DNA of 64,000 bases. It comes from a phage. The stretch lies in the sequence record NC_101835.1. One strand, written 5' to 3'. Shown here one piece after another: positions 19,335 to 46,056 of this stretch. Each line of letters starts with the position of its first letter. Position 1 is the stretch's first letter. The position numbers and the translations under genes are program-made. A model generated the notes under the pieces. The model saw only the letters and a program-made list of their open reading frames with translations, was not told where the DNA came from and did not search any database.

Positions 19335-19661
19335 ATGGGTATACCGATTACTGTAAAAGAGCTAAATGAACGTGATGCAGGTGGTCTATGGCCTGCACGA
19401 AAAATCCGCTGCGTCTATATGAAAGAGAATCTTGAACATCTTGATCAACAGATAAAGGTCGGCGATATTTTCGAGGTCTTCTATTCCAATCGGCGCAACT
19501 GGGAAACCATTCAGCCTTCTGGTTTTGTTCTTGCCAAACTTGACACTGGAGAAGTGATTATCCCTGGGTTGGATATTGTCTTCGAAATTATCCAAGAGTG
19601 GGATCCGGATAAGATTAGATACGAAGAATTATTCGGTAAAGGTATTATCAAACCTGTGTGA
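19335..19661 (+). CDS. hypothetical protein
   Basis: GAAGGAG RBS. Confidence 0.55.
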   Translation: MGIPITVKELNERDAGGLWPARKIRCVYMKENLEHLDQQIKVGDIFEVFYSNRRNWETIQPSGFVLAKLDTGEVIIPGLDIVFEIIQEWDPDKIRYEELFGKGIIKPV

Positions 19662-19669
19662 GGTGGATT

Positions 19670-19969
19670 ATGTCTACAAAGGCGGCTAAATACTCCTATA
19701 TGCCATCAACCTCTGCAGAGGTAGACTTTAGTTTCGATGTGTTTCCACTGTTTGAGGTGGTTCTGGCATACCCAACAATACTAACTACTCCTGAATCACT
19801 TGTGCCTGTTAAGTTGCAGAACGCTATGCATTCTATGCACTACAACAATAAATGTAGGCACAGATGGTGTCAGGACGAGGAAAAAGATTTGGATAGTTTG
19901 AGAGATTTTGACAGTCACCTTTTGACACCTTTTAGCTACTCCAACCTTGATAAGCCCTCATGGGTATAG
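19670..19969 (+). CDS. hypothetical protein
   Basis: In-frame ATG at 19670 after GAGGTGG (track 19658-19969). Confidence 0.45.
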   Translation: MSTKAAKYSYMPSTSAEVDFSFDVFPLFEVVLAYPTILTTPESLVPVKLQNAMHSMHYNNKCRHRWCQDEEKDLDSLRDFDSHLLTPFSYSNLDKPSWV

Positions 19970-19993
19970 CAAAATATCAAATTTAAGACACCT

Positions 19994-20022
19994 AGGACGC
20001 TCTGTGGCGTCCTTTTCTTTGT
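19994..20022 (+). terminator. rho-independent terminator
   Basis: AGGACGC-tctgtg-GCGTCCT followed by TTTTCTTTG. Confidence 0.65.
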
Positions 20023-20183
20023 CTGGTGCACGATTGCATACCTTGGACAGATAATCTCGTTACAGAGCGTTTAAGAGCTTCCTACAAACAACTCCATATT
20101 TCGAGCGTAGCGAGAACGCACGTCCGTTTTGACCCAAATCACCATACGCTCGGATTTTAACCAAACCCTCGCGGCGTTTCTAT

Positions 20184-20212
20184 TGACACATTACAGCTCC
20201 AGTGATAATATC
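20184..20212 (+). promoter_or_regulatory. sigma70-like promoter (TTGACA-17-TAATAT)
   Basis: Consensus -35/-10 about 20 nt upstream of the 20232 ORF. Confidence 0.5.
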
Positions 20213-20231
20213 CACACATCATTTGGAGAAT

Positions 20232-20333
20232 ATGGAATACACTATGAGAACATTGTCCGAAGTTTTAGTGGTGATCCTGATGATCATTACGTCCATAGCG
20301 GCTGTTGCCGGAATACTCACAGGTGGAACATGA
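20232..20333 (+). CDS. small hydrophobic peptide (33 aa)
   Basis: GGAGAA RBS; MEYTMRTLSEVLVVILMIITSIAAVAGILTGGT; ATGA coupling to next ORF. Confidence 0.35.
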   Translation: MEYTMRTLSEVLVVILMIITSIAAVAGILTGGT

Positions 20334-20542
20334 TCAACACACATGCATCTGAAGAGACATCCGAAGGAGTGACCATATGTCCCTTGGATGAGCCAGTTAA
20401 AGAGGAAAACTTAGATTCTGAGGACTCTTCATCTTCGTCCCAGACAGATCCTGAGGCTGATGACCTGACGTGGGAGGACATCGTAGATATCTGGTTCTCT
20501 ATTATGCCTGAGCACGAAGAGTTCAGAGGTGGTAGACTATGA
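20330..20542 (+). CDS. small acidic protein
   Basis: In-frame internal start of track ORF 20129-20542, whose 5' part overlaps the promoter. Confidence 0.4.
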   Translation: MINTHASEETSEGVTICPLDEPVKEENLDSEDSSSSSQTDPEADDLTWEDIVDIWFSIMPEHEEFRGGRL

Positions 20543-20661
20543 AGCACCGAGCCCACACAGGTTCCTCATGCTAAAGCATGGCCTGAAGAGGCAAACGTGC
20601 ATAATTCCTGCGCATTTGGACGTATAATCCTGTTCACACTCTCATTTCCAGAGGAGATTTT

Positions 20662-20877
20662 ATGAAGATAGAGATATTTGGTGGAGCTGACAACACTCGT
20701 GGCCTGATTTACCTTGAATTCGATGAATCATACCTGCCAGAGGTGTTAAATATAGACTCTGTTGCTGAGGCTTTGGGAGTAAACCCTAAAGAACTCCACT
20801 CTTGTGCTGAGATCGATGGTTGGGAAGAGACCATGAACATTGATTTCAGTGAAGTAGAGGATGAACCGCTGGACTGA
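20662..20877 (+). CDS. small acidic protein
   Basis: GAGGAG RBS; MKIEIFGG...SEVEDEPLD. Confidence 0.55.
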   Translation: MKIEIFGGADNTRGLIYLEFDESYLPEVLNIDSVAEALGVNPKELHSCAEIDGWEETMNIDFSEVEDEPLD

Positions 20878-21079
20878 CACACAATTAGCTGCCCGGCTAA
20901 AGTGCTGGAAGCACCTATAACACATCTTTCAACTAAATTTCCTACCACCACAATCACTTACCTCCCACACATGACTGTTTGCTTGTTTAGTGAGCAGTCA
21001 TGCCTTGACATTCTTGCCTATCCTGATAAAATTAAGTTCTTCTCTTTTCTTTTACCGAGTAATTCGGGTTTTCTGTTCT

Positions 21080-21300
21080 CTTCGGTTTGAAGGGGTATGG
21101 AGATACACCTGAGTGAACAGGGTGAACAACCGAACCTTTGGCTATGGCATTAGCATGGCGAAGCGGACGGGTGACGAAAGAGGGGCCGGAGGACACCAGT
21201 CACTGCCATATGATATATGGGTGATAACCTGAAGAGTCTGAATAAGTGTTTAAGTACCAGTCAGAGGAAAAGGTGAATGGTAGCCGAAGGGGGGAGGGGG
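21080..21300. other. GC-rich structured island in ORF-free region (possible ncRNA)
   Basis: Several short hairpins with GAAA/GCGAAG-type loops, ends in GGGGGGAGGGGGGG; no ORF. Confidence 0.3.
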
Positions 21301-22439
21301 GTTTCTTGTATCTTTAATTTGTATATTATGTATACACTTGTAAACCAATCTAATCTGAATCTGTTTACCACACAAAGCGGATAGAGACAAATATTGCCTA
21401 TTAAACTTGAATTATTTATAGAAAATACCACAACACTACTTAAGTCTTTGATTTTACACACAAATCCTGCAGATATTCACCCTCCATATTTAACATACTT
21501 GTAACATATTCCATACTCTACCTGCCCGATCAATTCACCCAACTACATCCCCATATTTTCCCTGTCTGTACTACCCCTGCCCCGCCGGGAGTCCCATCAT
21601 ATCTGGCTTTCCAGCAAATATCACACCCACAAATATCATTGCCTGAAGAGGGTTTCATCCCATAATACCTGCCTTACCTGAAGAGCGCTTCATACACCAC
21701 GTAAATTTTTTAATTGACCTCCCCCTGCCCCGCCGGAGAGGTTGGCTTTTCCCACACAGACCTGAAGAGTCAGCCAGAAATATCTGAATAGGCCCAATTC
21801 TACCACGATTTTGACCTGACCTACAGGGAGGCCCGAAGGGTCTAGCTTTCAGCTAGAGTCCTTGCAGGACCTACAGGAGCGCTGCCAGGCGGACGGAATG
21901 GGAATACTTCTCATTCTTATAACAATTCTCAAATATCGAGGCAGTGAGAGAAATTAATAGGCCAGGCCGTTCACACAGTGGCACAACATTTGCAACCTAT
22001 TTTGTGTGGATGAATGAGAATACCTATCATTATGAGAATAGTTATCATTACTGGCAATTTAACATAATACCCATTATGCGCACCACTGGCGATCCATACA
22101 GGGATTGATAACATGAGTTACTGTTTACGCATATAACAATTATATTTATTACTATTTGTGTTGGGTATAGTTAGCAGCCGATAGATTAGATATTGACCTG
22201 CAGACTTCCAACTGTCTAGACGTCTAAACGCCCACACAGCAAGGATTATACATACACAACTGAATGTAAACAGGGCCGCAAAAATGCTACCATACCAGAT
22301 TGTAAATTTTTCATGCAGCACTTGACAAAGAGGAGGAAAACTTGTCTGACATACTGTGACATAATATGACATAATAGTGACACACTGGGCATACTCAACA
22401 CTGGATACAATAACAATTGTTACTATTGCATGCCTCACT

Positions 22440-22750
22440 GTTCACGCATAGATGATAAGCCATGCCATTCGTTTGCATGACAATAATTAACTTGTTTACA
22501 ATCTTTCACTGGCTATGCCAGGTGACCTTTGGTCACCCCTTCGGGTGTTTCTATGACATAATATAAAAGCAGGGCAACTATTAGAAGATCTATAGTTGCC
22601 TTGCTTGTTATGTCATGATTAACTAAATACAAGGCAACTATGATCTGATTAATAGATTGCAGACAAACTATCACGGGGGTGATGGTTACTGCTTTTATAT
22701 TATGTCGCGACTCCGTCGCGCCATGCCATTCGTTTGCATAGTTGCCTTAT
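22440..22750. repeat. nested palindrome and direct-repeat complex
   Basis: GCCATGCCATTCGTTTGCAT twice (22459, 22720); GGCAACTAT/ATAGTTGCC arms four times; GACATAATATAAAAGC inverted at 22555 and 22691. Confidence 0.6.
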
Positions 22751-23351
22751 TGTTACAGGTAAAATAATTACATTATTAATTATTTCTTATCTTTCTCTTA
22801 GTCATCTAATGATTCCAGTCAGTATAGTAATGTACAGTAAACATTAGACGACTAAATATTTCTCTGTTTATGATAACTCACCGTGACAATTTCGGACTGT
22901 TTACGAAAAATGTTGACACCTAAGCTGATTTATGTTATGCAGTTTACACGAATAATTATTTTATGCAGGTATTGACTATTCCGTTATTCTGTGGTTGGAA
23001 TAAATACTTTGCAGGCTATAGAATGGCGTGCGTACATGAATTCTGAGATCTGGCGGCTATAGTTATACTCGATTTTTCACGTAGAACACGCTTTTTAGTT
23101 TGTGTAAGTGTATGACTTATAAGAATTTTTACTTGTTGACAAGATATTGAAGATCTGCATCAGGTTAAAATTTGTGCAATAGCTGCATTACGTGCAATTT
23201 TGGAAGGGAAAACGGGTAAAAATAGCCCTGCTACCACACAATGAAAAGTTATGCAATAGTTATTTTACATGTATATTTGTACAGTGTGTGGGGTTGATGG
23301 CTCGTCAATTATTCCACTTGCCAGGTAGGGCCGTTTATGGTAGGAGAAGAG

Positions 23352-23381
23352 CAGACAAAAAGAAAGGGGCCTAAGCCCCTT
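23352..23381 (-). terminator. rho-independent terminator closing the leftward array
   Basis: On minus strand AGGGGC-tta-GGCCCCT followed by TTCTTTTTGTC, just after the stop of 23400-23819. Confidence 0.6.
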
Positions 23382-23399
23382 GATAATTCAGTTAAAAAA

Positions 23400-23819
23400 T
23401 TATAATGATTCGTATATTTCAAAAATCCGATTTGCCAGGTCGTTACGGTAGCGGAATTTTTCCTCACGTTTGATCATAAGATCTTTATAGCCGTACTCTT
23501 TAAGCACTTCATTAACTTTATGGCGGCATACTTTCATATTATCCTGCGCGTCACCAATAAATCTGTTGCTATGGTGCATGGCTTTAATTTCTTCTTCCAG
23601 GACCAGGGCAACTATGCGGACCGGATCAAGCTGATAGGCGGTAACATCCATGCGGCATTGTAAACGGCTTTTTACGTCTGCCACCGGATATACTGCAACC
23701 TCTTCCCCGTCAACATTGACAATAATTAGTTTACCATCGATTTCGAATCCTTTCGCCGCCGGACCGTGACAAAAAGCGTTATCAAAGCTATATGCCGGAT
23801 TATTAGATTTAATGTTCAT
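23400..23819 (-). CDS. hypothetical protein
   Basis: Own promoter (TTGACA-17-TATATT on minus strand near 23890-23862); RBS AAGAGG. Confidence 0.55.
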   Translation of the reverse strand: MNIKSNNPAYSFDNAFCHGPAAKGFEIDGKLIIVNVDGEEVAVYPVADVKSRLQCRMDVTAYQLDPVRIVALVLEEEIKAMHHSNRFIGDAQDNMKVCRHKVNEVLKEYGYKDLMIKREEKFRYRNDLANRIFEIYESL

Positions 23820-23963
23820 GGTGTTTTTACCTCTTAGTTAATTTTCTTACAACTTCCCTTCAAAAAAGAATATAGCAAAACTGCCGATCCCTGTCAACCA
23901 GGGATAGCATAATTTTTATGTGATCAAGGGGCTTTATTGCCCCTGACCATGTAACTTGTTGTA

Positions 23964-24227
23964 TTATTTGTTGCTCATCCAGTTTTCCCAAGCTGCCTGA
24001 TAATCTGCCTCACTACGGCGGATCTCTTCTTGCTCTTCAAGGCGGATCTCTTCTTCCAGGTACCCCAAGATGTCAGCCTTTTTAGTCTGGCGCAGCATCC
24101 AGTCATCTTTTTTGCGAGTGAAGATCTTATAAGCTTTCTCGCAAACCTCTTTTTTGCTACCTTTCTGGACTTCAAGAACACGATAAGCCATATATTGAAC
24201 TAATTTGAGCTGATCAAGACGTTTCAT
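23964..24227 (-). CDS. hypothetical protein
   Basis: Leader hairpin GGGCC-aaaa-GGCCC (24260-24273) then cacaaagaggtaaacatc-ATG. Confidence 0.55.
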   Translation of the reverse strand: MKRLDQLKLVQYMAYRVLEVQKGSKKEVCEKAYKIFTRKKDDWMLRQTKKADILGYLEEEIRLEEQEEIRRSEADYQAAWENWMSNK

Positions 24228-24287
24228 GATGTTTACCTCTTTGTGCGGTTCTGATTAGTGGGCCTTTTGGCCCGTGTCATTATCTTA

Positions 24288-24560
24288 TTACTTATGGCGG
24301 CAGAATTCAAGCGTTTTTAATTGATAATCTTCCTCAGCTTGGAGTACGACCGCCTCGATCATTTCGTTGGCATTGTTAAAGCCATAACCTTTAGCGAACT
24401 CATCCGCGCCACCTTCGTGATCATGTTCTGCGTTCATCGCTTCCACAAAATGGAATTCCAAATTGTTGAGGTAGGGGCTTGATGTTCCGTCCTCTTTTTC
24501 GATGAGATCCCAAATAGCATTAAAACGTGATTCGACTTCTTGATTAATCCAGCTTGACAT
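24288..24560 (-). CDS. hypothetical acidic protein
   Basis: Leader hairpin GGGCA-aaag-TGCCC then RBS. Confidence 0.55.
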   Translation of the reverse strand: MSSWINQEVESRFNAIWDLIEKEDGTSSPYLNNLEFHFVEAMNAEHDHEGGADEFAKGYGFNNANEMIEAVVLQAEEDYQLKTLEFCRHK

Positions 24561-24668
24561 AGTGTTTTCCTCTCTCCTGGTTGTTGTGTGGGCACTTTTG
24601 CCCCTTCAAGATAAATGTTACCCCACCCCATGGCAGATGTCAACGGTTTTTATAGTTCTTATATGACA

Positions 24669-24711
24669 GGCAGGCCCGGTGATTGTCTCCCCCCGTCGCC
24701 AGGTGCCTGCC
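24669..24711 (-). other. conserved 43-nt stem-loop element, copy 1
   Basis: GGCAGGC...GCCTGCC imperfect hairpin just after a TTGCAA-16-TATACT promoter; related copies at 33658 and 33809. Confidence 0.5.
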
Positions 24712-24771
24712 GTGAAACAAGTATAACAAAAAACAGGACCATTGCAAGCCCTGTTTTGTAGTTTATAAATA

Positions 24772-24963
24772 TTATATTTTTTCGCCTATGTAGTCCGGTC
24801 GGTTTTTCTCTGTCATGCGCTTTAGCAATTCTTGCATGTTGCTTATGGCTTGTAGTGTATCCCCTTCCAGGCTTGAATCGACATAATCAGGATCGTCTAT
24901 GACCTTTCTATGATTATGATAACGCAGTACCGCCAATACCTTTCTGACTTGTTCGATATTCAT
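24772..24963 (-). CDS. hypothetical protein
   Basis: Track ORF. Confidence 0.5.
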   Translation of the reverse strand: MNIEQVRKVLAVLRYHNHRKVIDDPDYVDSSLEGDTLQAISNMQELLKRMTEKNRPDYIGEKI

Positions 24964-24975
24964 TTTTACCGCTCT

Positions 24976-25110
24976 TTAAAACAAGGTGCCAACCGTTTCC
25001 AATAGATCACTGACTGCCAGGACAATACCGATCAGCACATATCTAACCATAAGGGGAAAGAGCGCCAATATTGCCACCACAATCCCCAAGGTGATAATTA
25101 TCTTTCTCAT
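24976..25110 (-). CDS. small membrane peptide (about 44 aa)
   Basis: MRKIIITLGIVVAILALFPL...; below track cut-off. Confidence 0.3.
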   Translation of the reverse strand: MRKIIITLGIVVAILALFPLMVRYVLIGIVLAVSDLLETVGTLF

Positions 25111-43356: not shown

Positions 43357-43632
43357 CAATAGTTCAGGTAGGTCGTTAAGCTACCCCGCACCATTACGTG
43401 CATAGCCATACGTTTTCACGTAGGATCGGACCATCTCATATTCCTATGATAAGCAACCACAGGAATCCTCCCATTTCGACCGCACTTGCTGGTCTACTTC
43501 CTTTCGGAATGGCCTCTGAGCGTTCGCTCTTTTGAGCGCTTCGTTGCGGATTACCTTGCCATAAGGTTTAGGCTTCCCGCAGTTAAAGAGGTTATTCGAC
43601 ATAGATTACTCTATGAAGCCACAATGTTATTT
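43357..43632 (-). mobile_element. group I intron in DNA polymerase gene, no ORF
   Basis: Exon 1 ends on U after ...IIYYH, intron ends on G before DE; splicing rebuilds the YYH|DE motif; 276 nt. Confidence 0.6.
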
Positions 43633-46056
43633 ATGGTAATAAATAATACGACGAACACCTTCATCGTACCACCCACGCTTCACCATTTGGTGGTGCATAA
43701 GTATCCCAACCAAGTCACACAGCGATGCACCACCATTCTGTTGATATGCATTAAGTAAAGAGTGTTTAGATCGGGTCCAGATGGCATGACCATCAAAAGA
43801 GTAGATAAACTTCTTACCCGTTGCTTCCCAGAATTTCTCCAGATCCTCTTTACGGCCCTTAAGACCAGGGTTGGCATCCCAAAGCGCATCGATTACCCTT
43901 TGTCCCAACTCTGGAGAGATGTCCAGCATATCTGCAACTTTATCTTTTTGTGCCCCGTACATAACCCCATACGTGATAGGTTTACCGTCGTTACGGGACA
44001 CCTCTCTACCTGCTACTTTTGTATATGCCTCAGCATTGTTTTGGTGTGCGTCCCCGTTACTTACAACATCGTAATACAGGCCGTTGTCGAACTCAAAGGC
44101 ACCCCAAGCCCCGATAAGCTGCTCTAAGTTGGACCCGTCAATACCGATCTCAAAGTATCCCGGAGGAACACCCCACAGACTACGCATCTCTTTACCCATA
44201 ACCACTTTAGGAGATGGTTTAGGCATGTTTGCACAAATACTGTGTTTCTGTCTGGAAGTGTTTGTTAATCCAGAGCTTTTAGCAGGAAGCTTATGGTCAA
44301 TCTTCAAACGTGGGTGATTAAGAAGACCAGTGTCAACCTTATCCTCCTTGATTGGATCAAGTACCGATCTGCGGTTTCGCAATGATAACCATAAGACGAT
44401 ATCTTTAGCCATCTCTCCGTTCAATTTTTCAAGATTCGGACACAGGTGTCCAAACGTATCTTTCAGTTGCGGAGAAGTAATAAGTGCCCTAGCTTTTCTA
44501 CGTATTTTCCCGAATACTTCCTTTTTAATCCTTTCGGAGTTAGGAAAGCTTCGGAACTTGTGCACTGTTGTCTGAAACTTAGCATCAGTTTTGTTCCAGA
44601 AGTTGATAATTAGGTCACAATACTCTGACTCTAAAAGCTCGTCCATGTATGCATATACTCGTGCATCAACATCTGCATCAGGTAGAGCTTTCTTCTTGCT
44701 GTCTTTAGTTACATCCTTAGTTCTCCACATTGTCGGAAGCCAACCAGCACTGATCAGGTATCGCTTAATGTCGTCCTGATTGCTGATTTTCATAGGTATC
44801 TTGCAGTCAGGCATTCGCTTCTGCTGCAGATCGCTTATTGCCTGATCCATCAGCTCTTTAGGCAAAGGTTGTGGTGTGGAGGTGCCCTTAATATAACCTC
44901 TCAAGAAATCAGCCATCTTGTCGGGGTCTTTGCAGCCCATCTCTTCACACCATTTTATCCCCATCTTACTGACATCTCCTGTGGAGGTAAATGCTCTCTT
45001 AGGCGGGGCTTTGAACTCTAGAGCGCTCATGTCTACAGGATAGCCAAGCTTATCTTTTAACCATTTCCAACCATTATTAGAGATTGTCCCGTCTTGGTTA
45101 AACGGCTTTTCAGGGAACTTGGGCCGCTGAGACATTGACAGCTCTTTTAAAGGCAGTTGTGGTTCAACACGATCAGCGATTTCTTTCATCCACGCATCGC
45201 AACGGTCACGTAAAGCAATAGCTCCATCTATGTCGAAGTATACACCCTGACGGGCCTGCAGCTCCATCAGGAAGTGCTGCAGCATGCCTCGACGTAATGC
45301 GTTCTTCCAGGTGATCTTCTTGAACCCTTTCGGCTTCTCTTTGGCAGGATCGTACATAAAGTTCTGCATGTCAGATTTGCCGTAGAATACACCTTTTGAT
45401 TCCGCTACCAGTTCTTTCCAGAGCAGCTCCTGGATGATAACGTCCTCAAATACACGATCCACATACTTCCACAACGGAAGATCGCGCCAGTCATCAATTT
45501 GAACTTTCTGGTTACCAAGGGCATAGCCCCATGCCATAAGGCCGTGGGGACCAACAGGCTGCATTTTCTTAGTAACCGGGTTGAATACAGCGTCCGGACA
45601 ACCTTTTGGTAAAGGGCGATCAGGCCACAAGATTCGGCTCATCGCCAACGTATCAAACAGGTTAACCTGGTGGTCGTTGATAGTCCCCATGCATTTAGGA
45701 TCACGGAACATATCAAAATGAATACCGGATAATCTTTCCATCAGCATAAAGTCATAACTGTAGCAGTTATGGCAGTTCAAAGCTGTTGGTGACCAGTCGG
45801 AATTGCCTGTAAGCCAACCTTCCAACTCCGAAAAATCTGCTATGCGAACTTCAAAACCTTTATAAAGAGTTTTCTTTGCCAGAATGAAGTTCTTAGCCTT
45901 TTCTATATCCTCCTCGGAGTAGTGTGTGCGGTCATTTAGAGGAAGGAACAGCATAAAACGGTTCTTATTCAGCTCTTTAAACAGGCCGCAGTGATAATAA
46001 AGATCTGGATCTTCCAAAAGCCCTGAGGCCTCCAGATCGAAGCACCAATTACTCAT
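43633..46056 (-). CDS. DNA polymerase A, exon 1 (3'-5' exonuclease and polymerase motifs A/B)
   Basis: Exo I FDLEASGL; motif B RNDGKPITYGVMYGAQ; upstream of motif C colinear with T7 gp5. Confidence 0.8.

Follow-up and report, generated by a model that had tools for sequence, protein, structure and literature searches.

Which function is served by 2.5 kb of DNA without a convincing open reading frame (ORF), at the point where two gene arrays of a phage converge? The window, i.e., the whole 64-kb stretch of DNA that was analysed, comes from a Vequintavirus, an rV5-like E. coli myophage. For the gap at 20878-23399, a first-pass annotation had proposed a replication origin, a packaging site or genome terminus, or one or more non-coding RNAs. 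The gap itself is confirmed, as are the ends of the flanking genes (20877 and 23400) and the terminator-like hairpin (Table 1). It is matched at 88-96% by 121 phage records, all of them Vequintavirus-like. The two longest runs of the window without an ORF of at least 60 aa both lie in it (753 and 656 bp); the third-longest measures 308 bp. Figure 2 of the rV5 paper (2013) marks the region as a "non-coding" box, between genes 163 and 164.

Table 1 Features of the gap and its borders, from left to right in the window. A slash marks a boundary of the terminal repeat.
Feature	Position	Strand	Basis or remarks
Last rightward gene	20662-20877	+	71 aa, phrog_12108
Hairpin CATGACTG-17 nt-CAGTCATG	20970-21002	+	After last rightward gene, directly upstream of promoter-like site
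Sigma-70-like promoter TTGACA, 16 nt, TAAAAT	21005-21032	+	Promoter scan, 11/12 matches
Vequintavirus-specific island, ~270 bp	21040-21310	+	Ultra-conserved; candidate non-coding transcript or protein-recognition site
AT-rich spacer, 32% GC, TTTACCACACAAA-type repeats	21311-21560	.	Composition; repeat family D4
Decayed direct repeat, ~148 bp	21561-21800	+	Repeat search
Unit of ~50 bp between direct repeats GACCTACAGG (21818, 21868)	21818-21877	+	Just left of repeat boundary
Direct terminal repeat, Gotham type, 459 bp	21888-22346	.	Left boundary ...GCTGCCAG/GCGGACGGAATGGG, right boundary CTTGACAAAGAGGAGGAAAACTTGTC/
Three quasi-palindromic operator-like sites ATGRGAAT-n-TnTCAT (21898, 22014, 22032)	21898-22048	.	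Motif scan
Core ATTTAACATAATACnCnTTATGCGCAC, 27 nt, inside terminal repeat	22057-22083	.	HMM search and alignment
Four TGACAYAMT repeats (22347, 22357, 22367, 22378), 10-11-bp spacing	22347-22408	+	Motif scan
Hypervariable segment	22409-22544	+	ACTGTTYAC repeats, left copy of 20-bp direct repeat, hairpins
Nested inverted repeat, could form cruciform	22555-22706	.	Repeat search, folding, covariation
AT-rich non-coding tract	22740-23363	+	Promoter-like sites; invariant blocks 22927-22945 and 22947-22981
Terminator-like hairpin AAGGGGCTTAGGCCCCTT, then TCTTTTTGTC	23381-23364	-	Terminator scan; closes leftward gene array
First leftward gene	end at 23400	-	139 aa, phrog_12277

The gap might be decayed coding sequence (pseudogenes) or neutral spacer, with its repeats as relics. 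Short hypothetical ORFs have been annotated in it by some depositors, and indels and hypervariable patches occur at 21780-21880 and 22350-22550. In an alignment of 14 phages, however, codon periodicity is absent from every gap ORF, against a strong third-codon-position excess in the flanking genes (7:4:32, 7:6:56, and 11:6:48); most of the gap ORFs are interrupted in relatives (none of 13 keeps the 106-aa ORF at 22118-22438 intact), and a PHROG search assigned them to no family. Third-position excess, a retained ORF and a protein family, taken as marks of coding sequence or a recent pseudogene, are all found in the flanking genes and none of them in the gap ORFs. Most of the gap is conserved at least as well as the genes, and its architecture is kept across genera, with compensatory changes. 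A pseudogenised ORF as source of the repeats, an option considered at first pass, is excluded by the substitution pattern together with conservation equal to or above that of the neighbouring genes; decay or neutral drift is thus already contradicted as an explanation and is extremely improbable. A Pfam search of the small proteins flanking the gap gave no domains; this phage and KPP-1 each have an 87-aa gene next to the gap, without homology between the two.

A direct terminal repeat of 459 bp has been annotated at both ends of the record of the relative Gotham (PMC7471380). It aligns gap-free to 21888-22346 with 93.7% identity; the left boundary sequence is identical, and the boundary sequences of the repeat are conserved in 14 phages. 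The corresponding end positions are common to independent records: besides Gotham, the records of EdH4, ECP2309, and Aya end at the equivalent of 22346, and those of bov10K2 and bov22_2 start at that of 21888. CM1 carries a 523-bp tandem duplication with 0 mismatches, from GGCGGACGG to ...CTGGATAC, equal to 21888-22408 of the window; a tandem copy from the same left boundary is the signature of an end-to-end join. The right boundary differs by source (22346 in Gotham; 22408 in CM1, 62 bp further right), and the terminal repeat may extend to 22408 in this lineage. In the Mydovirus KPP-1, a Klebsiella phage, a 514-bp repeat lies in the equivalent gap between convergent gene arrays (PMC9862379); the records of the Mydovirus phages DP (also of Klebsiella; repeat of 514 bp) and KP12 likewise have their ends in such a gap, and the boundary motifs of all three are similar to those of the window. 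Two-fold read coverage over the repeat without circular permutation was reported for Gotham and KPP-1 (PMC7471380, PMC9862379).

Because of the homology to the Gotham repeat, the record ends at both of its boundaries, the exact tandem copy in CM1 and the layout common to relatives, the gap is likely to be the genome terminus, or concatemer-junction region, of Vequintavirus, with cis-acting signals and with ends that are placed by homology. The packaging site or genome terminus among the earlier proposals is in this way supported by the published repeat of a 94%-identical relative. The region is non-coding, conserved and homologous to mapped terminal repeats; the role of each of its sub-elements we infer. 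Contrary reports on packaging exist: circular permutation of these genomes is assumed in the rV5 paper; PVP-SE1 and phiTE were described as terminally redundant and circularly permuted, as was CB7 (BAL-31 digestion); PhageTerm verdicts are "circular permutated" for Vequintavirus bov10K2 and headful for BpE1AUH.

The layout reaches beyond the genus. Convergent arrays, the gap and, where mapped, the repeat are found in six other sampled Vequintavirinae lineages. Matching non-coding gaps occur in PVP-SE1, 4MG, GAP31, EC152, SNUABM01, Av-05, Kashira, and CR3, with flanking genes that are convergent where annotated, except in SNUABM01 and Kashira. An HMM of the Vequintavirus repeat matches the gaps of six other lineages (E 1e-5 to 5e-4), and the core ATTTAACATAATACnCnTTATGCGCAC is invariant in a 9-lineage alignment. 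This core is also present, unannotated, in Certrevirus CR3, CR8, CR9, and DU_PP_I. Since the Certrevirus phages, which are reported to be headful, carry the same core and an inverted repeat, the two are not specific to fixed-end packaging. The phiTE pseudo-ToxI non-coding RNA was considered as occupant of the equivalent gap and was rejected; it lies in the tRNA and terminase region.

Several smaller elements lie in and beside the terminal repeat. The ~50-bp unit at its left is present in some relatives and absent in others in the alignment; an analogous duplication, CACCATCTG..GGTG, immediately precedes the boundary in KPP-1. The three ATGRGAAT-n-TnTCAT sites are the only matches in 64 kb; ATGAGAAT repeats recur in KPP-1, 4MG, GAP31, and CR3, the last of which also has GATAATGATAATCATT. 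Outside its array, TGACAYAMT occurs in the window only at 22554, at the inverted-repeat arm. In 22347-22544 just 20% of columns are invariant. In the hypervariable segment, ACTGTTYAC repeats with ~15-16-bp spacing number one here and up to eight in rV5; the segment also contains two hairpins (22521-22537 and 22534-22547) and, at 22459, the left member of the 20-bp direct repeat pair GCCATGCCATTCGTTTGCAT. Promoter-like sites are predicted on the + strand of the AT-rich tract further right (TTGACA, 22913; TTGACT, 22972; TTGGAA-18-TAGAAT, 22995-23024).

The palindrome complex that had been noticed at first pass is real and far beyond chance. Its two outer arms of 18 nt, GACATAATATAAAAGCAG and CTGCTTTTATATTATGTC, are 100% complementary and separated by 116 nt; between them lie a long GGCAACTAT hairpin and another of 9 bp. 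Beyond the inverted repeat, at 22720-22739, comes the right copy of the 20-bp direct repeat. The folding energy of 22545-22716 as single-stranded DNA is -41.5 kcal/mol, and shuffles give -12.3 (z = -11.4 on the + strand; -10.1 on the - strand); z-scores are -10 to -12 in two genera on both strands, and in a scan of the whole gap, both strands, this complex alone stands out. Equivalent inverted repeats of 17-21 nt are found in KPP-1, AV124, PVP-SE1, 4MG, GAP31, EC152, SNUABM01, Av-05, Kashira, and CR3, which brings the phages with such arms to 11, in eight lineages. The arm sequences differ between lineages and yet pair perfectly, save one mismatch in EC152. Compensatory pairs, with changes on both sides, number 13 of 48, against 5.2 +/- 1.6, a value reached by 0 of 500 shuffles; paired cells amount to 93.9%, against 87.3% in shuffles and 25-50% with the partners slid. 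Both compensatory pairing and stability above shuffles, as expected of a conserved secondary structure, are thus found in 22555-22706; what folds may be DNA or RNA, or the symmetry may mirror sites for proteins. The centre of the inverted repeat is AT-rich and variable, and PVP-SE1 and AV124 have extra direct copies of the arm motif.

If the gap is the genome terminus, the following sequence of events is the most likely one. By analogy with T7-type phages, replicating genomes would be joined head to tail with a single repeat copy per junction; the junction would hold one copy at 21888-22346 (possibly to 22408), with ~1 kb of non-coding cis-acting DNA on either side. Terminase might recognise the 27-nt core, the TGACAYAMT and ACTGTTYAC arrays and the repeated arm motifs, and fixed cuts would be made at ...GCTGCCAG/GCGGACGG on the left and at ...AACTTGTC/ or ...CTGGATAC/ on the right; all of these binding and cleavage sites are candidates. 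Duplication of the repeat would then provide every packaged genome with a copy at both ends. A part in this processing may fall to the nested inverted repeat, which lies 150-300 bp inward from the left end: it could be extruded as a hairpin or cruciform, or serve as a pair of sites for protein binding.

A different kind of element is found at the left of the gap. Searched with a 321-bp query (20980-21300), 117 phage records show an identity of at least 97.8%, and 89 of them reach at least 99%; 94.5% of the island columns are invariant, against 72-89% in the neighbouring genes. The island had been described as GC-rich: its GC content is only 48%, and what stands is the contrast with the 32% GC tract to its right. 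The many short hairpins reported for it are no more stable than shuffled sequence (MFE z = -0.6 and -0.5), so that the island is remarkable for its conservation and not for its folding. Its G tract, given before as 6+1+7, is GGGGGGAGGGGGG, 6+1+6 (G6-A-G6, 21289-21301), at the 3' end of the island and followed by a T-rich tract. The candidate cut-site octamer GCGGACGG, present only twice in the window, has its second copy in the island at 21163. Upstream, the block 20975-21006 is invariant in 14 phages, and a 120-nt segment, 20900-21019(+), has a folding z of -3.6. Homologs of the island were found neither in E. coli genomes nor in other genera (nhmmer), and a metagenome scan gave only four contigs, all Vequintavirus-like; complementarity of the island to the rest of the window was searched for, with nothing meaningful found.

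The proposal of non-coding RNAs is possible for this island only: it could be the gene for a ~270-nt phage non-coding RNA, transcribed by host RNA polymerase from the promoter at 21005-21032, which would be compatible with a genome terminus. With 11 of 12 matching positions and a TG ahead of its -10 hexamer (extended -10), the promoter-like site retains its hexamers in the majority of the 14 relatives; in CM1, a single change turns TTGACA into TTAACA. Invariance sets in very close to the point where transcription is predicted to begin. The most divergent relative has changes in the promoter spacer but none in the 270 bp downstream. Conservation above that of the neighbouring genes, the lack of an ORF signal or PHROG match, and a fold slightly favoured on the + strand (z = -3.0 for 21050-21169) point the same way. 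Against this, the overall fold is no better than shuffles, the island is nearly without sequence variation and hence offers no covariation to assess, its 3' end lacks a clear intrinsic terminator and its homologs are confined to the genus. An Rfam 15 scan of the window matched only a group I intron (43407-43642); at E up to 10, the best matches in 20800-23450 reached 17-18 bits against thresholds of 60-85, and the covariance-model check that the first-pass annotation had suggested for 21000-21350 yields no family even so. ARAGORN found no tRNA or tmRNA genes, and a literature search for Vequintavirus transcriptomes or small RNAs returned nothing relevant. We regard a non-coding RNA gene as possible but less likely than not; more generally, the island is a separate, strongly constrained element, probably a short transcript or a recognition site.

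The direct repeats seen at first pass were recovered. CCCTGCCCCGCCGG occurs at 21575 and 21723, within an 18-nt repeat (21571-21588 and 21719-21736), and four copies of CCTGAAGAG lie at 21228, 21642, 21677, and 21761, all on the + strand; a fifth + strand copy lies at 20582, and the window holds 7 against 0.58 expected. Each unit of the ~148-bp repeat holds a C-tract (CYMCCCCTGCCCCGCCGG at 21571 and 21719), AAATATCA and CCTGAAGAG (21642, 21677, and 21761). Related motifs (GACCTGAAG.GTCAGCC, C-tracts, and AAATATCA) are found at the same position in KPP-1, GAP31, PVP-SE1, and CR3. CCTGAAGAG was inspected by eye as a lambda boxB-like hairpin loop or a -35-proximal promoter element, and both were rejected: the stems are inconsistent between copies.

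A replication origin in part of the gap, which would likewise be compatible with a terminus, could take two forms. A transcript from 21005-21032 could run through G6-A-G6 into the 32% GC tract and prime DNA synthesis from an R-loop; the order of promoter-like site, invariant 270 bp, G-tract and AT-rich tract suits this version, as does the G6-A-G6-TTT tract, which we take to resemble the mitochondrial CSB II primer-formation site. Alternatively, the nested inverted repeat with its AT-rich, variable centre could be a palindromic origin bound by an initiator; the adjoining repeat arrays fit this version, and the extra arm-motif copies in PVP-SE1 and AV124 suggest protein-binding sites. The ACTGTTYAC and TGACAYAMT arrays do adjoin AT-rich tracts, but such arrays are equally typical of packaging sites. 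Origins are usually located where gene arrays diverge; here the genes on both sides point into the gap, so that replication forks starting in it would collide with oncoming transcription. Neither DnaA (TTWTNCACA, one against 0.39 expected) nor IHF (one against 0.16) consensus sites are enriched in the gap, and Chi sites are not enriched either. No initiator gene was recognised beside the gap, the flanking proteins being without Pfam match, and the island is missing from other genera that share the rest of the architecture. GC skew does change sign in the gap, which would suit an origin, but it does so where transcription changes direction, an observation already made by the rV5 authors. The origin suggested at first pass is thus not supported by the tests run, and we consider it unlikely.

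The gap could also be mainly a DNA-entry or early-regulation region, in which clustered sites (operator-like ATGAGAAT palindromes, Fur-like boxes, and promoters) control injection, end protection or early transcription. The operator-like palindromes are confined to the terminal repeat; their likeness to Fur boxes, at 13-14 of the 19 consensus positions, is weak and counts against this view. Promoter-like sites over 19500-25000 number 26, against 14.4 +/- 3.8 in shuffles, but those on the + strand of 22740-23363 point against the adjacent leftward genes. The model for such a region is the left terminal repeat of T5, with its untranslated repeat regions and injection stop signal; there too, conserved non-coding nested direct and inverted repeats straddle the terminal-repeat boundary (10.1101/866236). 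The paired DnaA boxes of the T5 type are absent here, and a two-step transfer would have nothing to express, as the stretch from the end to the repeat complex is devoid of genes. Such a main role is, in our judgement, distinctly unlikely, and the genome terminus is retained as the preferred reading.

The non-coding gap and the terminal repeat are already published for close relatives. The literature search found no description of the nested inverted repeat at 22555-22706 or of the island at 21040-21310, no link of the rV5 "non-coding" box to the terminal repeat, and no account of the internal elements of that box. It is possible, though doubtful, that the terminus region contains two undescribed functional elements, the promoter-driven ~270-nt island and the core and inverted-repeat module of the subfamily. 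If so, the island, limited to Vequintavirus, could encode a phage non-coding RNA of a new kind, such as one for packaging, anti-defence or priming, with its end at G6-A-G6; the 27-nt core and the 150-220-bp co-varying inverted repeat, conserved across the sampled Vequintavirinae lineages, could be a recognition and processing signal common to members reported as fixed-end and members reported as headful, in which case a single DNA signal would serve both packaging modes. Phages like rV5 find wide use in cocktails for therapy and biocontrol, as well as in the BASEL collection, and their ends and packaging mode have been reported inconsistently. Placing the rV5 box at the terminal repeat would provide a rational start coordinate for genome annotation, explain assembly artefacts such as the CM1 duplication and yield candidates that can be tested (cut sites, recognition sequences, and processing hairpin). 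No other non-coding sequence in this part of the genome is as constrained as the co-varying inverted repeat and the island, which are direct targets for mechanistic work and for engineering, e.g., packaging signals for transducing particles.

Closest to this gap are the repeats of Gotham (459 bp), KPP-1, and DP (514 bp each) and the rV5 box, which represent the homologous locus, ORF-free and between convergent arrays; the ends of the present phage are placed by homology to these, with a right boundary perhaps 62 bp further right as in CM1. Terminal-repeat junctions with cis signals are, as a general kind, well known from T7 and T5. At the T7/T3 junction, short-repeat arrays flank a terminal repeat of 160 bp, promoters are found close to the ends, and repeat duplication passes through a hairpin intermediate, features reportedly described by Dunn and Studier in 1983 and by Chung, Nardone and Hinkle in 1990. 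Like it, the present gap has a short exact terminal repeat flanked by short-repeat arrays, promoter-like sites without genes beside the ends and, a few hundred bp from the repeat, an inverted repeat that could form a hairpin. Unlike T7/T3, it belongs to a myovirus of ~137 kb with host RNA polymerase promoters, and there is no sequence similarity; the inverted repeat is nested and much larger (150-220 bp), its hairpin is predicted, and its place, as the window is oriented, is on the left-end side of the junction. Two-step DNA transfer is, to our knowledge, not known for rV5-like phages. The palindromic origins oriS and oriL of HSV have inverted initiator sites around an AT-rich centre; the inverted repeat of the gap likewise has an AT-rich, variable centre between arms that co-vary from lineage to lineage, but no initiator protein was identified, and the gene orientation argues against an origin. 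Compared with T5, which has a ~10-kb repeat with pre-early genes, the repeat of 459-521 bp is gene-less, and the hallmark paired DnaA boxes were not found in the gap; common to both are a conserved non-coding tract of at least ~1 kb, better conserved than many neighbouring ORFs, and nested direct and inverted repeats and palindromes at the terminal-repeat boundary (10.1101/866236).

The gap between the convergent gene arrays belongs to the genome of an rV5-like E. coli phage. As a query it is matched by 121 phage records at about 88–96% identity, all of them rV5-like E. coli myophages of the genus Vequintavirus, including some that are labelled 'Campylobacter phage' and marked unverified. The host labels of 19 UNVERIFIED MG0656xx 'Campylobacter phage' records (D1, D#, C2, A147, and others; 88–95% identical to Vequintavirus) look wrong. 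The absence of convincing ORFs noted in the first-pass annotation was confirmed by ORF scan of the window, by codon-position pattern, and by PHROG search. The two longest stretches without an ORF of at least 60 aa in the whole window (753 and 656 bp) both lie in the gap, the next being 308 bp. For the codon-position test, the window was aligned with 13 relatives and gap ORFs of at least 30 aa were scored; a third-position excess is seen in the flanking genes (7:4:32, 7:6:56, 11:6:48, 6:2:43) and in none of the gap ORFs, most of which are interrupted among the 13 relatives. No gap ORF matches a PHROG family; both flanking genes do. The stretch is left empty in the carefully annotated BASEL phage RudolfGeigy, and in rV5 a gray 'non-coding' box without ORFs is drawn between genes 163 and 164, with no function offered (PMC3606486).

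Coordinates of the features in and around the gap, and of one intron elsewhere in the window
Feature	Position	Strand	Remarks
Last rightward gene	20662-20877	+	71 aa; PHROG family member
ORF-free gap	20878-23399		between convergent gene arrays
Conserved island	21040-21310		94.5% of columns invariant
Predicted terminal repeat (Gotham type)	21888-22346		
Invariant core	22057-22083		
Nested inverted repeat	22555-22706		
Outer arms of inverted repeat	22555-22572 / 22689-22706		18 nt, perfect
Terminator-like hairpin	23381-23364	-	adjoins end of leftward array
First leftward gene	ends 23400	-	PHROG family member
Group I catalytic intron	43407-43642	-	Rfam RF00028, 64.7 bits (gathering score 50), E = 4e-14, full-length model match

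On the left flank, only 4 of the 13 relatives keep an intact copy of a 137-aa ORF (20129-20542), which shows no codon periodicity (51:36:47); several tiny ORFs are placed at 19970-20660 by other annotations; invariant blocks of non-coding appearance occupy 19996-20016 (terminator-like), 20099-20122, and 20158-20178. Apart from the genuine 71-aa gene, poor coding may set in about 900 bp before the left edge of the gap. On the right flank, a 139-aa gene (23400-23819) is absent from pangalan, Alma, and one IMG/VR contig, in which an 87-aa gene directly follows the terminator.

Several phage records open or close inside the gap query. A 459-bp repeat annotated at both ends of the Gotham record aligns gap-free with the terminal-repeat segment of the window at 93.7% identity; EdH4, ECP2309, and EcoIv14a_Aya have records that stop at the position matching 22346, and the first base of the bov10K2 and bov22_2 records corresponds to 21888. 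Shigella phage CM1, among the closest relatives, carries a 523-bp tandem duplication, exact over its whole length (0 mismatches), that starts at the same GGCGGACGG boundary as the terminal repeat and ends after ...CTGGATAC. This duplication looks like the two ends of a terminally repeated genome joined to each other and is probably an assembly artefact of joined genome ends, not real extra DNA; it suggests that the repeat may reach 22408 in the lineage of CM1 and the window. Within the duplication (MK962749.1, 4030-5075), a 'hypothetical protein' is annotated. The Gotham alignment, the record ends, and the CM1 duplication together indicate that the gap holds a terminal repeat, and by sequence homology the gap would consist of this repeat flanked by non-coding DNA, about 1 kb to the left and to the right. 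Of the functions first proposed for the gap, a packaging site or genome terminus is favored by homology to the mapped repeats of relatives, an origin is unsupported, and a non-coding RNA is possible for one sub-element.

The same architecture recurs across the subfamily. In KPP-1 (Klebsiella, Mydovirus), a 514-bp terminal repeat (116316-116829; PMC9862379) sits where two gene arrays converge, in a gap of about 1.8 kb, and the DP and KP12 records start at its boundary. Boundary motifs are common to Vequintavirus and Mydovirus (left, ...|G(G/A)CGGAC(G/A)G; right, CTTGACAA(A/G)GAG...TTGT|), as are the upstream motifs GACCTGAAG.GTCAGCC, C-tracts, and AAATATCA. An equivalent gap is present in PVP-SE1, 4MG, GAP31, and EC152 (Seunavirus), pEp_SNUABM_01 (Henunavirus), Av-05 (Avunavirus), and Kashira and CR3 (Certrevirus). 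The other lineages are matched by an HMM of the Vequintavirus repeat (E 1e-5 to 5e-4), the piece in common being the core ATTTAACATAATACnCnTTATGCGCAC, invariant in nine lineages and also found, unannotated, in Certrevirus genomes. Published accounts of packaging in the subfamily disagree: fixed repeats are reported for KPP-1 (PMC9862379), likewise for Gotham and DP, whereas rV5 (PMC3606486), PVP-SE1, phiTE, CB7, bov10K2, and BpE1AUH are given as circularly permuted or headful. Since Certrevirus genomes have the same core and inverted repeat, neither element is specific to fixed-end packaging.

Within the terminal repeat, overlapping matches at 22016-22052 agree at 13-14 of 19 positions with the E. 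coli Fur-box consensus. In CR3, a near-perfect GATAATGATAATCAT (2534-2548) stands directly after the invariant core. This hints that the genome end may be under iron or Fur control, or that a phage protein recognizes a similar sequence.

The short motifs listed in the first-pass annotation are present and enriched: CCTGAAGAG, seven in the window vs 0.58 expected, with five + strand copies between 20582 and 21769; GGCAACTAT, six vs 0.46 expected, with four copies clustered in 22573-22746; CTGTTYAC, 11 vs 4.8 expected, seven inside or beside the gap. Conservation of the gap mostly equals that of the neighboring genes. The exceptions are two hypervariable patches and, in the other direction, the island and the nested inverted repeat, both more constrained than the genes. 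In the first patch (21780-21880), immediately to the left of the terminal-repeat boundary, some phages have and others lack a unit of about 50 bp framed by GACCTACAGG direct repeats; the second (22347-22544) has four copies of TGACAYAMT spaced 10-11 bp apart, followed by an ACTGTTYAC array with one copy in the window and up to eight in rV5. About 110 bp of extra ACTGTTYAC repeats follow 22451 in most relatives.

Between the outer arms of the nested inverted repeat lie two hairpins, a long GGCAACTAT one and a short one. Folded as ssDNA, 22545-22716 reaches -41.5 kcal/mol on the + strand (z = -11.4) and -39.4 on the - strand (z = -10.1); z is -11.3 and -12.4 for the equivalent in KPP-1. In the ten phages examined besides this one, KPP-1 among them and representing seven further lineages, the arms measure 17-21 nt and are separated by 72-188 nt; they are perfectly complementary except in EC152 (one mismatch) and differ in sequence between lineages. 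The consensus of an eight-sequence alignment is a four-way junction with compensatory changes in 13 of 48 pairs; paired cells amount to 93.9%, vs 87.3% after shuffling and 25-50% after sliding the partners, and the 13 double-changed pairs (vs 5.2 +/- 1.6) are equalled by none of 500 shuffles. Indels are tolerated in loops and arrays, not in arms; a 33-bp insertion, TTAACATCCTCGAGACGAAGGCTATGCCTGAGT, lies inside the element at 22607/22608 in rV5, phita32, and A147. The window arm opens with TGACATAAT, as do the boundary repeats. The outer arms contain Watson-Crick pairs only; the element has a few G-T/U pairs, on the + strand only, one of them kept in six phages; additional direct copies of the arm motif occur in PVP-SE1 and AV124. 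The data are compatible with three readings: a DNA hairpin or cruciform that is extruded, a pair of sites bound by a protein that co-evolves with them, or an RNA.

The segment 20980-21300 is at least 97.8% identical in 117 records and at least 99% in 89 of these. Invariance of the island starts just 3' of a sigma-70-like promoter (TTGACA-16-TAAAAT with TG), and the most divergent relative has a changed promoter spacer but unaltered sequence in the 270 bp downstream. The region had been described as a GC-rich island with hairpins; it has 48% GC and a folding energy not beyond that of shuffled sequence. The proposed covariance-model scan gave no Rfam match in the island, the codon-position test and PHROG search gave no coding signal, and no counterpart was found outside Vequintavirus. 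The sole other window copy of the putative cut-site octamer GCGGACGG lies in the island (21163). These data would fit either a short transcript made by host polymerase or a site recognized by a protein. The G tract noted earlier is present, in the form G6-A-G6 (21289-21301), vs G5-A-G6 in 13 of 13 relatives; the extra G may have arisen from misreading of the homopolymer during sequencing, or it may be true variation in an otherwise invariant element.

An origin in the gap is possible, but nothing supports it: DnaA and IHF sites show no enrichment, the genes on both sides run toward the gap, and the GC-skew switch follows transcription. In rV5, the GC-skew change at the non-coding box likewise coincides with the change in transcription direction (PMC3606486).

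Homology to mapped repeats, non-coding status, and constraint are observed for the region. The region is best read as a T7-type concatemer junction, and we infer the role of each element in it, partly by analogy with T7. A single repeat copy would be present at each concatemer junction; terminase would recognize sequences within the region and cut at fixed sites on both boundaries; the repeat would be duplicated; the short-repeat arrays, invariant core, and inverted repeat would act as cis signals. For close relatives, the non-coding locus (2013) and the terminal repeat (2020) are already published; no description of the internal anatomy (subfamily-invariant core, co-varying nested inverted repeat, ultra-conserved island) was found in the literature consulted. 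Although the gap lacks the paired DnaA boxes that mark them, the untranslated repeat regions of the T5 left terminal repeat are the nearest published tract of this sort (10.1101/866236).
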